In this document: piece after piece, positions 1 through 49,281 of the stretch
Numbering within the stretch: the first letter of the stretch is position 1
Layout: each line of letters opens with the position of its first letter
Assembly (NCBI GenBank): GCA_964461035.1
Contig: CAYWRI010000001.1
Location: forward strand, 43,394 to 99,072
Reading direction: 5' to 3'
From: an uncultured Methanosarcinales archaeon
GTDB lineage: Archaea; Nanobdellota; Nanobdellia; Woesearchaeales; CAYZNE01
DNA: 55,679 bases
The notes under the pieces: model-generated
What the model was told of the DNA's origin: nothing
Database searches by the model: none
The model's input: the letters and a program-made list of their open reading frames with translations, nothing else
Made by a program: the position numbers and the translations under genes

Positions 1-1587
1 CTTGAATTTATAAAATCGGGTGCAACTTTATTAATACCTGAAATAACTGAACAGCCAATAGCTATTGGAGATATTGATAAAAATTATCCTGGTTTAGAAT
101 TAGCATTTGTTGAACATCAAAACAGTTATTTACATGTATATCATTCAGATGGAACTATTGTGGAAAATTTTCCCACTCAAGAACGTATGAATGTGAACCA
201 ATATGTTGCAGTTGGCGATATTAATAATAATGGTCATTTAGAACTTGTAGCTATAGGTAGAAATAATCAGGATAATTACATATACATATTTAATGATGAA
301 GGAGAATTATTAAACACTATTGAATTATTTGAAAGTGGAACATCAGTTGTTTTAGAAGATATTAATAATGATGGAAATTTAGAATTGATTGTTTCTCATT
401 GGTATCAAGAAAACTCATGGATAACTAAAGTTTACAATTTACTTGGCGAAAATTTATATAATTTTTCAGGAGGAAATATGTTTTTTATGCCTTCTGTAGC
501 AGATATAGATAATGATAATTTAGTAGATATTATCATAAGCTCGGAAAATAATGATGATACAAATATAATTGCATATGATATTAATTCTGGTTTAAAATGG
601 CAAAGATTACTTCAAGGTGAAATAGCTGGAGAAGTAGTTATTGGAAATATTGATGCCACTTCAGAAGAATTAGAAATTGTGGCAATTACTTGCGAGTATG
701 GTGATTATTGTAAAATTCATGTTTTAGATTCTGATGGTGATTATTTGAATGAAAATTGGCCAAAAACGATTTCATACCCTGAAAATTTTTATGGAACAAG
801 CACTATATCCTTAAGTAATATGAATCCTACAGATAATAATTTAGAAATACTTTTTTCTATGTCTAACGAAATTCATGTTTTAGATTCTGAGGGTGAATAC
901 CTAAATGAAAATTGGCCAAAAACAGTAGCGGGTTATGGAATATCATCAATTTCTACTGCAGATTTAGATGATGATCAATTTCCAGAAATAATAGTTGGTT
1001 CTCCATCATCATTAAATATTTTTAATTATTTGGGTGAAAATTTTATTGATCCTATTCAATCACAAAGTCAAAATTTATACCCTGTTGTTTCAGATATTAA
1101 TGTAAATGGTTTTTGGGATATAATCACAAGTTCTCATGAAATGGGAATTTATTTTGTAGATTTAAACAATGACTATAAAAGCCATTCGCAAGAATGGTCA
1201 ATGTTTCAACATGATGTAAAACACACTGGAAAATATACAAATCCTGAACTAAATGTTCTATTAGGTGATGTTAATGATGATCAATTAGTTGATTCTTTTG
1301 ATGCAAGTTTAGTTTTAAACTATTTTGTGTTAAATGAAATAAATTTTGAAAATTGGCAGATTATTGCTGCAGATGTGGATTGTAATGGTGCAATAGAATC
1401 ATATGATGCAGCACTTATTTTAAGATATTCTGTAGGTATAATTGATCAATTTCCTTGTGAATTTGAAGGAAGATATGATAAAAATGAATTATCTGTGTTG
1501 AATAAATGTATAAATAATATTAATGTAGATTTAAACAAAAATAATCTTCAAAAAGAACTAACTAATTGTTTAAGCGTTATGCATTAA
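1..1587 (+). CDS. FG-GAP/VCBS-like repeat (beta-propeller) protein with C-terminal dockerin type I domain and Cys-containing tail; 5'-truncated by the window edge
   Basis: Frame is open from base 1 (LEFIKSG...). Repeats such as VAVGDINNNGHLELV, ADIDNDNLVDII and TADLDDDQFPEIIVGS; WSMFQHDVKHTG motif; paired dockerin Ca-loops GDVNDDQLVDSFD / ADVDCNGAIESYD. Confidence 0.8.
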   Translation, partial: LEFIKSGATLLIPEITEQPIAIGDIDKNYPGLELAFVEHQNSYLHVYHSDGTIVENFPTQERMNVNQYVAVGDINNNGHLELVAIGRNNQDNYIYIFNDEGELLNTIELFESGTSVVLEDINNDGNLELIVSHWYQENSWITKVYNLLGENLYNFSGGNMFFMPSVADIDNDNLVDIIISSENNDDTNIIAYDINSGLKWQRLLQGEIAGEVVIGNIDATSEELEIVAITCEYGDYCKIHVLDSDGDYLNENWPKTISYPENFYGTSTISLSNMNPTDNNLEILFSMSNEIHVLDSEGEYLNENWPKTVAGYGISSISTADLDDDQFPEIIVGSPSSLNIFNYLGENFIDPIQSQSQNLYPVVSDINVNGFWDIITSSHEMGIYFVDLNNDYKSHSQEWSMFQHDVKHTGKYTNPELNVLLGDVNDDQLVDSFDASLVLNYFVLNEINFENWQIIAADVDCNGAIESYDAALILRYSVGIIDQFPCEFEGRYDKNELSVLNKCINNINVDLNKNNLQKELTNCLSVMH

Positions 1588-16012: not shown

Positions 16013-16090
16013 TTATATCACAATCTATGTAATGATTCTAAAATATATAAATCTTTGGTTTGCTTTTTTAAATTATCTAAGAATAAAAAA

Positions 16091-16173
16091 CGCCAAGGCC
16101 CAGATTCGAACTGGGAATAGCCTAAGCTACTGGATCTCAAGTCCAGCCGAGTACCGGATTGTCGCACCTTGGC
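16091..16173 (-). tRNA. tRNA-Ser (TGA)
   Basis: Acceptor GCCAAGG/CCTTGGC, G73, anticodon arm CTGGA-CT-TGA-GA-TCCAG, long variable arm, T arm CCCAG-TTCGAAT-CTGGG. Confidence 0.93.
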
Positions 16174-16175
16174 AA

Positions 16176-16298
16176 TGCGGATGAGGAGACTTGAACTCCC
16201 GACCTCCAGATGGCTCAGCACACGAATAATCATTGCCTTGCAGCTCATCACTCATGGATTTATGAGTCTGGCGCTCTAACCAACTAAACTACATCCGC
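16176..16298 (-). tRNA. tRNA-Met (CAT, probably elongator) with a 49-nt intron at 37/38 (intron 16212-16260)
   Basis: Acceptor GCGGATG/CATCCGC, CCAGA-CT-CAT-A|intron|A-TCTGG; central BHB helix C32-A35 pairs with the intron's 3' TGAG. Ile2 identity cannot be excluded from sequence alone. Confidence 0.9.
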
Positions 16299-21448: not shown

Positions 21449-22660
21449 CTATTTTCTAGTTATGATAAGATAATTTAACTCTAATTCACCAATTACTATC
21501 TTTGATGAACTTTCAAGCTTAAAAGTTTTGTGATTTAAGAGTTCTATAAATAATTCAGGCTTTTGAATCAAAATACCCATTTTACCCGTTTCTTTAAGAA
21601 CATATTCTGTCTGATATAAAAATTCTTTATACATTTTTGAAACTCTTTTAGACGCTGTATGTTTAGATTCAGATGGAAGAAAAGTTGCTATTTTATCAAC
21701 ATCATGCTTTTCAAATTTTGTATCTAACCAATCTAAAGATATTTTTGAAAAGTTAATAATATCAAGAATTCCTGCAACTTTTGCATTACTTTTTCCAGAG
21801 TTCATTTCTTGTAATAATTCCGAATAAGCAAATATTTTATTTTTATTTAATTTAATTAAATTTGCTTTAGCTTTTTCTTTTAATTTTTTTAATTCTTCTT
21901 CTAAAGCAATATCTTTGAATAATATATTGCTTGTTTCTGAAGCTAATGCCTCATAAAAATTATGCATTCCTGAAAGATAAAGTCCTGCTTCTATTGATGT
22001 TTCAGCAGTTTTAGAATTAGGATCAAGAAGAATTTCACCTTCTTTATAATCAATTTCTCTAATTAAATGATATGCGACTGTTGCATTTAATGATTTTCCA
22101 GAGTTTATTAATTTATATTGTCTTTTACTTAAGTTTTCTCTTGCAATGTCAACACCAAAAATTGCATGAGTTTTATTTACATGTAATACAAATCTTAAAG
22201 CAGAAGAATCAAATTTTACTTTTTTATCAGCATATTTCTTAAGAATCAATTCGCCAAGAGCTGGTTCTATTTCTCTTGAATCAAGATCAGAATTTAAACG
22301 ATTAGCTCTTACATAAAAATTATCATAATTTTGAGTCCAAAATTTGAATTCTTTAGTATTAATGCTTTTTTCTATTTTTTTATATAAGTCTTCAACGTCT
22401 TTAAAGTCAAATTCATCAACAACACACATTATTTTACTTGCTGCCTGAGATAATATTGTTAATTTAAACAGATTCAATAAATCTTTTTTAGTATTGTTAA
22501 TATTAAAGACTAAAACAGATTCTTTTTTTACTGTATCTTTGTTCATAATCTCTTTTATTTCTTTTTCTGCTGAATTCTCTATTCCTATTTCTGTTATGAG
22601 TACAATTTTTAATTTTTTACCTAATAAACTAGTTTTTATTGATTGTTTTATATTTTTCAT
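21449..22660 (-). CDS. THUMP-domain RNA methyltransferase-like protein (Trm14/RlmL family) with degenerate catalytic motifs
   Basis: THUMP region, then LSKRQY...SLNATVAYHL; DPNSKTAET replaces DPxCGSGT and TFLPS replaces NPPY. Confidence 0.7.
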   Translation of the reverse strand: MKNIKQSIKTSLLGKKLKIVLITEIGIENSAEKEIKEIMNKDTVKKESVLVFNINNTKKDLLNLFKLTILSQAASKIMCVVDEFDFKDVEDLYKKIEKSINTKEFKFWTQNYDNFYVRANRLNSDLDSREIEPALGELILKKYADKKVKFDSSALRFVLHVNKTHAIFGVDIARENLSKRQYKLINSGKSLNATVAYHLIREIDYKEGEILLDPNSKTAETSIEAGLYLSGMHNFYEALASETSNILFKDIALEEELKKLKEKAKANLIKLNKNKIFAYSELLQEMNSGKSNAKVAGILDIINFSKISLDWLDTKFEKHDVDKIATFLPSESKHTASKRVSKMYKEFLYQTEYVLKETGKMGILIQKPELFIELLNHKTFKLESSSKIVIGELELNYLIITRK

Positions 22661-27416: not shown

Positions 27417-28403
27417 ATGTGCTTTGTGAAGTGTATGTATGTTATTGAAATTAATAAAACAAATATCGGAATGAGTATTGCAGAAGCACTTAGTATGTTG
27501 AAGCCTAAAAAATATAGTATAATTGATGATTATTTAATCATTGAAAAAAATAATATTAATACTAAAAAACTAAGTTTTGGTCTTGTAAAAAACATATATG
27601 AAATTATTACTTCTGCAAAAAGCATTGAAGAACTTAAAATCAATATTAGTAAAATTAATTTTAAGAAAATAATAAATAATACTTATAAAGTTGATACTTT
27701 GAATTGTAAAGAAGAAAAAATTGATATCATAAATTCTATTGCACAGTTCATAAAAAAAGAATTAAATTCTAAAAATGTTAAAAGAGATGTTTCTCTTAAT
27801 AATCCTGGTTCTTTTTTTGTGTGCATCAAAACAAAAAGTAAATATTTTTTTACTCAAAAAATCTGGACAAATATTGATAATATTAAGACAAGAGAATTAA
27901 AAGAGTTACCTCAAAGATTGCCAACTGCTACAGATCCAAAAATAGCAAAAGCAATGGTTAATCTTACAGGGAAAAATAAAGTTAAAATTCTTGATCCTTT
28001 TTGTGGTAGTGGCGGAATACTTATAGAAGCAGCACTTTTAGGTCACAAAATAAAAGGTTTTGATATTGATAAAAGAGCACTTGGATCTGCTAAACTTAAT
28101 ATGTTGTATCTTGGAATAAAAAATTTTTCTCTTGAATTAAAAGATTGTCTTACTATGAATCTTAAAGCAAATGCGATAGTAACCGATTTACCTTATGGAA
28201 AGAATTCAAAAATTAATCAAGACTTAAAAAAATTATACAAAGAATTCTTACATTATTCTTCTAAATTCACAAAAATTTTAATTATTGGTTTTCCATCAGA
28301 AATTGATGAAAGTTTTATAACAAATGAATGGAAAATCGATAACTTCTTTGAAATTTATATACATAAAAGCATGTCTAAGAAGATTTTTGTTTTAAAGCAA
28401 TAA
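27417..28403 (+). CDS. trm11: tRNA (guanine-10-N2)-methyltransferase, Trm11/TrmG10-like
   Basis: TATDPKIAKAMVNL, ILDPFCGSGGILIEAA, GFDID, VTDLPYG, IYIHKSMSKKI. Confidence 0.82.
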   Translation: MCFVKCMYVIEINKTNIGMSIAEALSMLKPKKYSIIDDYLIIEKNNINTKKLSFGLVKNIYEIITSAKSIEELKINISKINFKKIINNTYKVDTLNCKEEKIDIINSIAQFIKKELNSKNVKRDVSLNNPGSFFVCIKTKSKYFFTQKIWTNIDNIKTRELKELPQRLPTATDPKIAKAMVNLTGKNKVKILDPFCGSGGILIEAALLGHKIKGFDIDKRALGSAKLNMLYLGIKNFSLELKDCLTMNLKANAIVTDLPYGKNSKINQDLKKLYKEFLHYSSKFTKILIIGFPSEIDESFITNEWKIDNFFEIYIHKSMSKKIFVLKQ

Positions 28404-46734: not shown

Positions 46735-49281
46735 TTAAGTTTTCTCTTTTAAAGACAAGGATGATTTTTTATCTTCAATACATTTCATTAACTCTTCTTC
46801 AAGTAATTGAGTGTCTGACGTTATTTTGATACTAGCTATACAAGTATTTGTTTTTTTAACTAGTTCTTCATCATACCTTCCACCACTATTACAAGGAAAT
46901 TCGTCTATTATCTCAGTTATGTATTGAAGAATAAAGCTAGAATCAAAAGATTCAATAACTTCATTACAATCCACATCTGCAGAAATTAATTGCCAATCTT
47001 CAAACGCAATCATTTCTGCTGAATATCTTAAGACCAAAGCAACATCGTATGAATCAATAACTCCATTACCATCAACATCACCTAATGGGTGAGTGTTTGC
47101 ACAAGTTCCATCTAATTGACAATAAGTTTCTTCTGAACAACCACATTGCTGACAATTATTAATTAATTCGCCTTCAACACAATAGAACGGCTGTTCGTCA
47201 GAACAAGAATCATCCATGGTTCCATCATCACAAGTAATCCAAACTTCATTGCAATATAAATAATTTTCATTATACGCTGGCCACCCATCTGCGCAAGAAC
47301 TTACTTCACCGAAATTATTTCCATAACCTGAAGTACTTTCTGAACCCGCACACAAAACATCTCCCATAAAAGTGTCTGAGTCACAAATTCTATTATTTGT
47401 AATTATTGTATTATGGGAAAGTAAAATAGATAATCCTGCATCAAACATTAGATATCCAAAAGAATAAATAATATTGTTATTTATTAAAGTTCCATCATTT
47501 GTAATATGCAGTTTAATTCCCCCTTTATTGCTATTATTGATATTGTTGTTTATTAAGGAAAAATTGTCTGAGTTTTCTATGAGTATTCCTTCTAAACCAT
47601 TATTATTGATATTGTTGTTTATTAAGGAAAAATTGTCTGAGTTTTCTATGAGTATTCCTTCTAAAGAACTATTGGTTAGATTATTATCAATTATGAAAAA
47701 ATGGGTTGAATCCTTTATGATGATACCCTCCTTAGTAAAACAAATACTATTATTAACTATAGATATATTGTGTGAGTTCCATATGTTAATTTTCGATTTA
47801 TGGTTCATAATATTGTTTTTTATTTCAACATTGTTAGTTTCCGAACCTAAATCAAAAGACTGTCCATTATGACTAAAAGAATTATTAGTAAGTAATAAAT
47901 TTTCAGAATAAGAAAAATCAAATCCTGCATTAAAACCTGCAAGAATACAATTTTTTATAGTTGCATTATTAACGTGCCATAACTCCAAATAAGTTCCCGA
48001 ACTTGGTTTTGGAGCAACAATTTCTGCTTGTTCTAGCGCATCACAATCTATTAACAAATTATTCTCATATATGATTTGAATTGTGGGTTCATCGTAATTA
48101 TACACCCAAATTTCGGTTTCGACAACATTATCTTTACTAAATCCTTGAGTTTCTTGATTTAAATCAGAAACTATAATTTCAAATTTTAGAATAGTATATT
48201 GTAATTTACTAATAGTCCAAGTAAAATCTGTTACTTCTATAAAATTTTGATTAGGAACTGCATTAACAAATCGTGTTTCTTCTAATATGTTATCAATATA
48301 AAAATTAACCTGTAATTCTGAAAGTTCTAAATTATTATATCCTGAAAAATTTATTGTTAAATTAAAAATTTTTTCTAGATTTTCAGAGTCAAATATGATA
48401 TTAGAACCATAGTAACCTTGAAATACATTGAAACTTGATTCAAGTTTATCAATCCAAACATTTTTTAATAGATTTACTGAAAAGTCATCGTCATTTAAAT
48501 CCTTTATAAGATTACCTTCAGAATCCTCAACACAATTATTACTACAATTAGTAGTATCTTCAGATTTACCCCAATAACAATAATCATCATTATCATTATC
48601 AGAACAATAAACAGAAATATCATTTGTTGGATAGGGATATTTAGAGAAACCAAACGCACTTAATTCATTTAAAATAACATATCCTTCTTCCCCCCAGTCT
48701 TCTCCCCACGAATTTTTAATAATAAGATTATCATCTTCAGTATATCCTGTAAAAACCATTGCATGTCCCCAAGACCCCACCACTACTCCTCCAGGACCAT
48801 ATTTAAATAAACTTGATTTCGTTGAATAGGGAGAGAGATATTCTGTTGTTAAGTCGCCAATATTCCACGCATTTTCAGGATTTTCACAAATATTACAAGC
48901 AATATTTTCTGCCTGATAAGGGAAGCAATCTTCTAAAACCAATGAACCGTCTAAAAGATATTCATATGCATTACTTACTCCGCCACCAGCACAATCTCCA
49001 CAATCCTCGCAACACTCACCATCATTTGAAACTAATTGTTGTTCAGATAAATCAACATCTAACTGTTGATTGTAAAATAAATTTATTTGACCTTCAATTG
49101 ATCCAACAGCAGAAAAAGCCCAGCAACTTCCACATTGTTCCTGATTTTTAACAGGGGTCATCCAATTTTGACCCATGTAATCACGGTAATCTAAAGAATC
49201 TGGATAATTCCCTAGAGATTCTGCATTCACTAAAGATATTAACAGTAAAGATAATAAGATTAATAAAAATATTTTTTTCAT
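46735..49281 (-). CDS. secreted papain-family (C1A) cysteine protease with Ig-like domain, parallel beta-helix repeats, Cys-rich region and C-terminal dockerin + tail
   Basis: Signal peptide; DYR...WMTPVKNQEQCGSCWAFS, DLSEQQLV, GHAMVFTGY, KNSWG; IENSDNFSLINNNI repeats; GDVDGNGVIDSYD / ADVDCNEVIESFD. Confidence 0.9.
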   Translation of the reverse strand: MKKIFLLILLSLLLISLVNAESLGNYPDSLDYRDYMGQNWMTPVKNQEQCGSCWAFSAVGSIEGQINLFYNQQLDVDLSEQQLVSNDGECCEDCGDCAGGGVSNAYEYLLDGSLVLEDCFPYQAENIACNICENPENAWNIGDLTTEYLSPYSTKSSLFKYGPGGVVVGSWGHAMVFTGYTEDDNLIIKNSWGEDWGEEGYVILNELSAFGFSKYPYPTNDISVYCSDNDNDDYCYWGKSEDTTNCSNNCVEDSEGNLIKDLNDDDFSVNLLKNVWIDKLESSFNVFQGYYGSNIIFDSENLEKIFNLTINFSGYNNLELSELQVNFYIDNILEETRFVNAVPNQNFIEVTDFTWTISKLQYTILKFEIIVSDLNQETQGFSKDNVVETEIWVYNYDEPTIQIIYENNLLIDCDALEQAEIVAPKPSSGTYLELWHVNNATIKNCILAGFNAGFDFSYSENLLLTNNSFSHNGQSFDLGSETNNVEIKNNIMNHKSKINIWNSHNISIVNNSICFTKEGIIIKDSTHFFIIDNNLTNSSLEGILIENSDNFSLINNNINNNGLEGILIENSDNFSLINNNINNSNKGGIKLHITNDGTLINNNIIYSFGYLMFDAGLSILLSHNTIITNNRICDSDTFMGDVLCAGSESTSGYGNNFGEVSSCADGWPAYNENYLYCNEVWITCDDGTMDDSCSDEQPFYCVEGELINNCQQCGCSEETYCQLDGTCANTHPLGDVDGNGVIDSYDVALVLRYSAEMIAFEDWQLISADVDCNEVIESFDSSFILQYITEIIDEFPCNSGGRYDEELVKKTNTCIASIKITSDTQLLEEELMKCIEDKKSSLSLKEKT
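47532..47665. repeat. exact 65-bp tandem duplication (69-bp period) adding one beta-helix turn
   Basis: 47532-47596 is identical to 47601-47665; the protein has LEGILIENSDNFSLINNNINN twice. Confidence 0.9.

Follow-up and report, generated by a model that had tools for sequence, protein, structure and literature searches.

A tRNA-Met intron family of DPANN archaea and Hadarchaeota with a C'/D'-type K-turn and an antisense element in register for C34: a candidate natural monopartite guide for methylation of its own tRNA

What might a 49-nt tRNA intron be doing if it places, directly 5' of a K-turn-like hairpin, a hexamer complementary to the anticodon loop of the very tRNA that it interrupts? 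The question is raised by a tRNA-Met gene on the minus strand, at 16176-16298 of the window, by which we mean the whole analyzed stretch of 55,679 nt from a contig labelled as that of an uncultured Methanosarcinales archaeon (CAYWRI010000001.1 of assembly GCA_964461035.1). The gene is recovered by the Rfam tRNA model (RF00005) with 56.7 bits and is not called by ARAGORN in its default mode because it carries an intron. With its G1-C72 pair and an anticodon stem of CCAGA/UCUGG the gene cannot be that of an initiator tRNA, and we class it provisionally as elongator-type by virtue of the homology of its intron to that of a Nanoarchaeum equitans gene annotated as an elongator tRNA-Met. The 5' exon ends in the anticodon loop segment CUCAUA, and the components of the gene, with the intron numbered from i1 to i49, are as follows:

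16176..16298 (-): elongator-type tRNA(CAU) gene with an intron, spliced length 74 nt (Rfam RF00005 and dissection)
16261..16298 (-): 5' exon, 38 nt, covering positions 1-37 of the tRNA plus an additional nucleotide in the D loop (dissection)
16212..16260 (-): intron, 49 nt, at the canonical 37/38 position (dissection)
16176..16211 (-): 3' exon, 36 nt, positions 38-73 (dissection)
16262..16267 (-): target stretch A31 C32 U33 C34 A35 U36, with the anticodon CAU at 16264-16262 (direct reading)
16264 (-): C34, the predicted 2'-O-methylation site (box-D'+5 register)
16256..16260 (-): pre-guide linker AAUCC (i1-5), variable in relatives
16250..16255 (-): putative antisense guide AUGAGU (i6-11), in which G8 (16253) is N+5 and pairs with C34 (dissection)
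16249 (-): spacer G12, the N+1 nucleotide (direct reading)
16245..16248 (-): D'-like box AUGA (i13-16), which forms the K-turn strand without the bulge (direct reading)
16235..16244 (-): K-turn C stem and loop GCU-GCAA-GGC (i17-26; covariation)
16227..16234 (-): C'-like box AAUGAUUA (i27-34), with the bulge AAU, the sheared G30 and A31, U32 (U.U) and U33, which pairs with A13 (direct reading)
16218..16226 (-): tail UUCGUGUGC (i35-43; MFE fold)
16214..16217 (-): strand UGAG of the BHB central helix (i44-47), pairing with C32-A35 (MFE fold)
16090..16174 (-): tRNA-Ser(UGA), context only, outside the guide (ARAGORN)

[quoted passage not shown]

Read along its own strand (16260..16212), the intron runs AAUCC-AUGAGU-G-AUGA-GCU-GCAA-GGC-AAU-GAUUA-UUCGUGUG-CUGA-GCC, which is both the sequence and the order of elements that an earlier note on this DNA had given; an identical copy of this intron is found in the metagenome contig L307. 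The hexamer A6-U11 is complementary to A31-U36 over 6 bp, with no extension in the window, and counting from A13 by the box-D'+5 rule makes G8 the N+5 nucleotide, opposite C34, so that the self-complementarity and the register claimed in that note are borne out by direct reading. The D'/C' K-turn that it described is likewise legible in all its parts, viz., a C stem of three pairs (G17-C26, C18-G25, and one wobble, U19.G24) capped by a GNRA loop (GCAA), a 3-nt bulge (A27 A28 U29), the tandem pairs A16.G30 and G15.A31, and beyond them U14.U32 and A13-U33. With the C stem, the 3-nt bulge, the tandem pairs predicted to be sheared, and the non-canonical stem all present, the element is assigned on its primary structure to the K-turns. 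The two caveats of the note, namely a guide of just 6 bp and the lack of a terminal C box, are also correct, and the CUGA close to the 3' end of the intron (i43-46; 16215-16218) indeed overlaps the UGAG (i44-47). This CUGA had further been bracketed as a possible D box, a reading that we abandon: it is unconserved in relatives and belongs to the BHB strand.

Individually, such features come cheaply. In dinucleotide-preserving shuffles of the intron (n=200,000), a K-turn-like arrangement of GA, hairpin, and GA arises in 31% and the guide hexamer in 13%, frequencies that might be taken to favor a chance resemblance in an AT-rich intron; the intron is GA/UG-rich, and it is in this context that the single features are common. 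The compound motif (RUGAGU-N-NNGA, a hairpin of at least 3 bp, a 3-nt bulge, and GA), however, is reached by merely 101 of the 200,000 shuffles (5e-4), and its conservation with covariation across several phyla, set out below, practically refutes chance, to which we accord next to no credence. Rfam searches of the intron in E-value mode returned CD-box matches at chance level alone (E = 2-6).

The comparative data come from three genome scans and one metagenome scan. The first of these, across 185,579 species genomes, constrained the exons alone and left the intron content unselected, whereas the second and third imposed the guide sequence and the guide-to-D' spacing, so that scan 1 alone is unbiased for both. 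Scan 1 recovered at least 120 intron-containing tRNA(CAU) genes, at least 15 of which have the same intron architecture (16 of 121 with the window included, among the matches listed). Taken over all four scans, the family comprises at least 69 tRNA(CAU) genes, i.e., that of the window and 68 others, with 62 distinct guide regions, and its hosts are labelled as Woesearchaeota, Nanoarchaeota/Nanoarchaeia, Hadarchaeota, or Micrarchaeota (Anstonellales and Fermentimicrarchaeum among the latter); a gene from Aenigmatarchaeota (L007) with a deviant version of the architecture is kept outside the 69. Introns of this type also occur in complete genomes, namely those of N. equitans (AE017199), Ca. Fermentimicrarchaeum (CP058998), and Ca. 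Micrarchaeum A_DKE (NZ_CP060530), and in OY970229. We define the family by an intron at position 37/38 of an elongator-type tRNA(CAU) with the layout RUGAGY-N-NUGA-(hairpin or loop)-RAU-GA, every element of which is found in the window. Its members begin with a pre-guide segment of 3-19 nt, frequently a small hairpin, followed by the guide RUGAGY, a one-nucleotide spacer, and the D' box (CUGA in 31 genes, AUGA in 30, UUGA in 5, and ACGA, AAGA, and GUGA in 1 each). The D' box leads into a hairpin of mostly 2-5 bp or, in Hadarchaeota and some Nanoarchaeia, a plain loop, and then into a 3-nt bulge (GAU in 40, AAU in 18), the GA, and a tail ending in the splice-motif strand, for a total intron length of 37-83 nt. 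The members from Hadarchaeota display consensus CUGA and AUGAUG boxes in a K-loop arrangement. The closest relatives of the window version (L094 and L107) are syntenic with the window down to the neighboring tRNA-Ser(UGA). As for the source organisms, several of the metagenome-assembled genomes (MAGs) labelled 'uncultured Methanosarcinales', among them the two with these closest relatives, look mislabelled; the gene content of the window fits a DPANN archaeon, and the nearest relative of its FEN1 protein is from a Woesearchaeota MAG (48% identity).

One member of this family has been in the literature since 2012: the 66-nt intron of the N. equitans elongator tRNA-Met was reported as a stable, abundant, C/D-like RNA (Randau 2012, Genome Biol 13:R63; PMC3491384), with 31,500 reads and the target entry 'no prediction' in the supplement of that study. 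The earlier note had mentioned a C/D-like proposal for this intron, and it does belong to the same family: it sits at 37/38 and reads GCAUGGGCU AUGAGC U CUGA CCC GAAA GGG GAU GA..., differing from the window version in its length of 66 nt, a tail with an additional GC hairpin of 6 bp, and a consensus CUGA as D'. Its guide ends in C, opposite G31 of its own tRNA (genome locus L250). That study draws the intron as a C/D pair, without self-targeting of C34, a single K-turn, or a wider family (PMC3491384). Our full-text literature searches for a guide in a tRNA-Met intron returned Randau 2012 alone, an earlier mention being possible in Joardar 2011, Clouet d'Orval 2001, or Clouet-d'Orval 2005 (Biochimie); in the literature searched there appears to be no description of C34 as a self-target, of a design with a single K-turn, or of a family this broad.

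Aligning the tRNA-Met introns of relatives, as the earlier note had advised, reveals covariation both in the K-turn stem and between the guide and tRNA position 31. For the C stem we used the 28 length-compatible sequences of the 35 members with a hairpin, leaving out seven with longer stems that MAFFT misaligned. Across these 28, the C stem is 97.6% paired, all three pairs (3/3) are changed on both sides, and the covariation score of 0.427 compares with 0.123 +/- 0.035 in shuffles (0/500 reach the score) and with 0.086 or less when the register is slid. In the same 28 sequences, the GA of D', the GA of C', and the U of the bulge do not vary at all. Conservation was not found for the 4b-4n pair of the K-turn (A13-U33 in the window), which is paired in 21% of the family alignment. 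The target stretch corresponding to A31-U36 is 100% paired with the guide in the 62 distinct family members, and position 31, the sole variable position of the target, was left free in every search pattern. At this position the base in the tRNA and the last base of the guide form A:U in 47 and G:C in 15 cases and are unpaired in none (62/62 distinct sequences, among the matches listed), the window conforming with U11 opposite A31; chance matches to the same patterns outside tRNAs display all eight combinations of position 31 and guide end. On the D' side, the N+1 nucleotide pairs with position 30 in 4.8% of the family and is unpaired in 95%, as in canonical guides, and at the other end A37 pairs in 76% with the nucleotide preceding the guide. 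We therefore regard it as strongly supported by these comparisons that the intron carries a C'/D'-type K-turn and an antisense element in register for C34 of its own tRNA, and the intron feature is real and conserved, and almost certainly functional.

The same position-31 data bear on whether the antisense element might be meant for another molecule. Randau 2012 searched for rRNA targets of the N. equitans intron, and excised tRNA introns of Haloferax are circularized and stable; one could thus envisage an excised, possibly circular, intron acting in trans as a guide for some other RNA such as rRNA, with the match to its own anticodon being incidental. That search found no rRNA target, the sole conserved antisense bases are those matching positions 31-36 of the intron's own tRNA, and these bases track position 31 of that tRNA across lineages, making a foreign target very improbable.

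To which class of guide, if any, does the intron then belong? It shares with the canonical bipartite box C/D sRNAs the internal C'/D' motif and the D'+5 register. It lacks a terminal K-turn made of a box C (RUGAUGA) with a box D (CUGA), the exon lying no more than 12 nt 5' of D', and its guide offers 6 bp (6-11 bp in relatives) against the canonical guide of about 10-12 nt with at least 8-10 bp; lacking the terminal C/D motif and with so short a guide, the window intron falls outside the canonical bipartite class. Two ways of supplying the missing motif were considered and rejected. The segment GUGAUGA (i10-16) could be taken as a terminal C box together with the CUGA at i43-46, a pairing that has no closing stem and a 3' CUGA that is unconserved; although GUGAUGA matches the C consensus, relatives read GUGCUGA at this place, and hence the site works as D'. 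Nor could a second K-turn formed upon circularization of the intron be drawn from the sequence.

A closer counterpart is found among engineered RNAs. The monopartite guides MMG4 (K-turn) and MMG5 (K-loop) likewise have a 5' single-stranded guide, one hairpin, and a target at position 5 (PMC9670817), and they were efficient and site-specific in vitro once L7Ae was added (Wang, Yang and Ye 2022; PMC9670817); the RNA in the half-mer RNP structure of Xue 2010 is of the same design class. The family shows this half-mer layout, i.e., one K-turn or K-loop hairpin, one 5' guide, and a target at guide position 5. MMG4 and MMG5 are synthetic, have 12-nt guides, and act in trans on substrates with 8-11 bp, whereas the window element is natural, limited to 6 bp, and covalently linked to its target (PMC9670817). 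Since its layout equals that of the engineered RNAs, we read the intron as what is probably a naturally occurring monopartite ('half-mer') guide of the box C/D kind, directing the formation of Cm34 in its own tRNA. Under this proposal, the single C'/D'-type K-turn hairpin (AUGA / GCU-GCAA-GGC / AAU-GAUUA) would bind L7Ae and nucleate a Nop5-fibrillarin complex, the 6-nt antisense element 5' of D' would pair with A31-U36, as its sequence and covariation indicate, and C34, which the register places at +5, would be converted to Cm34. The intronic element would in this way take over the job of the stand-alone sRNAs of the sR-tMet/sR49 type in Haloferax and Pyrococcus.

Those sRNAs and two further systems delimit the proposal. 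The elongator tRNA-Met of H. volcanii carries Cm34, guided by a stand-alone C/D sRNA on the precursor; sR-tMet of Haloferax and sR49 of Pyrococcus share with the window intron the target nucleotide, the tRNA, and an intron-containing precursor as substrate (PMC2584109), and differ from it in being bipartite C/D RNAs from separate genes (Joardar 2011; Grosjean 2008). The intron of the euryarchaeal pre-tRNA-Trp (Clouet d'Orval 2001; Singh 2004) resembles it in holding a guide to C34 of its own tRNA that competes with the splicing fold. That intron, however, is about 100 nt long and has a full set of C, D', C', and D boxes with two guides (for C34 and U39), in contrast to the CAU host, one K-turn, and one guide of the window intron and the 37-83 nt of its family. 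Human SNORD97/SCARNA97 (Vitali and Kiss 2019; PMC6601510) also direct RNA-guided Cm34 formation on elongator tRNA-Met(CAU), but are eukaryotic, stand-alone, bipartite snoRNAs located outside tRNA introns.

Several observations count against the guide reading, namely the 6 bp of the window relative to the 8-11 bp in the tests of engineered half-mers, the presence of one K-turn alone with neither a second one nor a terminal C/D motif, a window fold that pairs the guide with the intron tail, and an unconserved 4b-4n pair, to which comes the restriction of unbiased guide and spacing data to scan 1. As regards the protein partners, none of the 55 ORFs of 100 aa or more in the 55.7-kb window encodes fibrillarin, Nop5, or L7Ae, and no canonical stand-alone C/D sRNA was found in the window either. 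Genomes with this type of intron encode fibrillarin (L300; 175.6 bits against the Pfam model) and L7Ae (L219, L253, and L277), according to a search that covered a few kb per locus with approximate probe sequences, its matches being confirmed by Pfam; Nop5 was not seen within the few kb around the family loci or beside the fibrillarin gene of L300.

The main rival is an explanation without methylation, in which the K-turn is an L7Ae-binding structural or chaperone element for the folding, splicing, or stability of the intron and the hexamer serves as a structural helix. In its favor, L7Ae is bound by K-turns of numerous RNAs that have no part in methylation (RNase P, SRP, mRNAs), the intron of N. 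equitans shows unusual stability, a second K-turn is missing, and many members form a duplex of no more than 6-7 bp. Moreover, a hairpin in cis between guide and anticodon is the minimum free energy (MFE) structure of anticodon arm plus intron in 33 of 46 relatives and may be mere precursor structure. We nonetheless hold a purely structural role to be unlikely: it predicts neither the unpaired D'-proximal base, nor the consensus CUGA/AUGAUG boxes of the Hadarchaeota, nor the one-nucleotide D' spacing that puts C34 at +5, which is constant in all listed scan-1 introns with the K-turn architecture, and the cis hairpin competes with the BHB fold instead of aiding it.

The competition arises because both duplexes draw on the same bases of the anticodon loop. 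The MFE fold of the anticodon arm in the window version joins UGAG to C32-A35 in the central helix of the BHB, which has 4 bp (C32-A35:U44-G47); predicted beside it are a 3' bulge of C48 C49 A38 and, on the 5' side, a 6-nt loop facing a 3-nt one, so that the motif is a relaxed one. The guide duplex needs C32-A35 as well, whence the two states are mutually exclusive, and the overlap of CUGA with UGAG and the conflict of guide pairing with splicing put forward in the earlier note agree with these folds. The splicing-type structure is the MFE of the window version (-18.8 kcal/mol; forcing the guide duplex to form gives -12.6 kcal/mol) and also of the other members of its clade, L094/L107, L040, L196, and L164.

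A related idea is that the intron, by pairing with C32-U36, masks the anticodon and shields C34 from other modifiers until splicing, with a K-turn-bound protein stabilizing the mask; the tRNA-Ile2 agmatidine synthetase and an acetyltransferase are examples of such modifiers. Discrimination is a real problem in that three CAU tRNAs have the same anticodon loop, and the duplex spans exactly this loop. Masking of this kind seems quite improbable to us all the same, as it is without precedent in the literature searched, leaves the D'+5 register and the C/D consensus boxes unexplained, and would duplicate what the BHB helix already does for C32-A35 in any 37/38 intron.

If the intron is a guide, does it act in cis or in trans? 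Extensions of the guide beyond U36 are lineage-specific, averaging 1.7 bp whether the target is taken as spliced or as unspliced (null 0.6): in Micrarchaeota they fit the spliced tRNA better (AUU pairing with A37-A38-U39), in a few genes they fit the precursor better, and in Hadarchaeota they suit either one. Given a guide of 6 bp and three CAU tRNAs (initiator, elongator, and Ile2), affinity and isoacceptor specificity would be gained most economically by action in cis on the unspliced precursor, which we consider the more plausible route.

The window fold adds a further layer. In its MFE structure the guide region (i5-14) pairs with i31-40, i.e., the tail just 3' of C', and is thereby sequestered. 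This guide:tail helix is confined to the immediate clade of the window, where it has thermodynamic support and one weakly informative change, from U.G to U-A, among very close relatives; a metagenome scan for covariation in the helix returned near-identical relatives alone. The helix lies one nucleotide out of step with the K-turn register and takes up A31 of the C' GA; the K-turn and sequestration therefore exclude each other, which suggests that binding of L7Ae would free the guide. One may then tentatively picture a naturally occurring methylation guide with one K-turn that operates in cis and whose conformation is switched by a protein. As long as L7Ae is absent, the intron of the window clade would form a 10-bp helix, hiding the guide and presenting the splice motif; L7Ae would force the K-turn register through a one-nucleotide slip and release the guide for invasion of the anticodon loop; C34 would be methylated first, and the BHB would re-form for splicing only afterwards. 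The covalent tether would both give a 6-bp guide enough affinity and restrict Cm34 to the elongator among the three CAU tRNAs. We consider this full scheme possible but doubtful. It comes close to the self-guiding methylate-then-splice switch that the earlier note had proposed, the C34 register of which stands, reinforced by covariation, while the proposed order of events is conjectural and the window's MFE is of the splicing type with the guide sequestered.

Beyond the window, the family assigns a predicted target, C34, to the abundant N. equitans tRNA-Met intron RNA, an orphan since 2012. The guide for Cm34 has been described as 'always intronic' for tRNA-Trp and 'always exonic', i.e., stand-alone, for tRNA-Met (Grosjean 2008; PMC2584109); if the proposed guide function is correct, the family would be an exception to the latter rule (PMC2584109) from lineages unavailable at that time, and in DPANN archaea and Hadarchaeota the guide would lie within its own substrate. 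Among natural RNAs, it also seems to be the first family of monopartite, single-K-turn guides of the C/D type. An intron that itself encodes the modification guide would make a separate sRNA gene unneeded, offering a rationale for the retention of the tRNA-Met intron in reduced genomes, and at about 50 nt it may provide a compact natural system in which to study how L7Ae binding, guide pairing, and BHB splicing influence one another.

Genes for two proteins of the box C/D guide set, L7Ae and fibrillarin, were found close to tRNA-Met genes whose intron carries the K-turn/guide module (coordinates are those of each locus recovered by the scans):
L219, 4660-4983: L7Ae gene
L253, 4689-5012: L7Ae gene
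L277, 2816-3148: L7Ae gene
L300, 4411-5196: fibrillarin gene
L300, 5159-5998, minus strand: ORF upstream of fibrillarin, AP-endonuclease-2/xylose-isomerase-like TIM barrel

The distance to the L7Ae gene is 0.7-2.5 kb in three lineages (L219, L253, L277), and that to fibrillarin is 0.7 kb in one further lineage (L300). Against a chance expectation of about 0.5 L7Ae and about 0.5 fibrillarin genes in the sequence searched, these counts (three and one, respectively) hint at a possible linkage of the two genes to K-turn-intron tRNA-Met but are too low for a judgement. The nop5-fibrillarin operon, the usual archaeal arrangement, is absent at the L300 fibrillarin locus; the upstream ORF is not Nop5.

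The following features lie in the window around the tRNA-Met gene and beyond it:
16090-16174, minus strand: tRNA-Ser(UGA), beginning 1 nt past the tRNA-Met 3' end
16219-16222, within the tRNA-Met intron: GUGC, the window copy of a recurrent tail motif
160-1587, plus strand, and 46735-49281, minus strand: two large dockerin-bearing surface proteins
21449-22660, minus strand, and 27417-28403, plus strand: two THUMP/UPF0020-type RNA methyltransferase genes

Given the 1-nt gap, tRNA-Met and tRNA-Ser(UGA) are probably made as a single transcript; the pair, with a tRNA-Lys close by, is kept in L094 and L107, and a metagenome contig (L307, Ga0307992_1074364) has a tRNA-Met gene identical to that of the window, intron included, and probably represents the window's own population. 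One dockerin-bearing protein contains FG-GAP and the other a papain-like protease with a beta-helix. About half of the window ORFs have no Pfam match, as is typical of DPANN.

The tail motif, G(C/U)GC(U/C), recurs slightly 5' of the splice-motif strand in the introns of the window and of L040, L066, L074, L094, L099, L141, L155, L196, and L216, and is often palindromic (e.g., AAGCGCGCUU or UAGCGCUA); it could form an h' helix, pair with tRNA positions 24-27, or mediate half-mer dimerisation. The Aenigmatarchaeota intron L007 retains the guide AUGAGU and its spacing; its D' position reads CUUA, lacking GA, followed by a 9-bp hairpin and AAU-GA. This variant member may be a K-turn in degenerate or alternative form.

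Among the first-scan matches listed (L001-L120; e.g., L011, L022, L026, L060), the most frequent class of tRNA-Met intron, GGG...GAGGCGYY...CCUGAGA, occurs in Methanosarcinales, Methanomicrobiales, and Methanoperedens and lacks the K-turn/guide module. In its Methanoperedens members, a UGAUGA precedes the terminal CUGA by about 14 nt, and the two could constitute a different C/D-like pairing. The Asgard introns of L056 (Odinarchaeota), L103 (Thorarchaeota), and L091 (Hermod-labelled) are a third class with box-like motifs, sharing GGGUCAGA-...-AUGAUGA/AUGAUUA-CUGGCGC-(CUGA), where CUGGCGC complements positions 24-30 of the tRNA; a different target is possible.

DPANN-type introns are also found in 12 MAGs titled 'uncultured Methanosarcinales archaeon' (L094, L107, L074, L108, L141, L155, L164, L214, L226, L300, L302, L306), with L094 and L107 being syntenic with the Woesearchaeota-like window. 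Because true Methanosarcinales have an intron class other than the DPANN type, these 12 labels look wrong.
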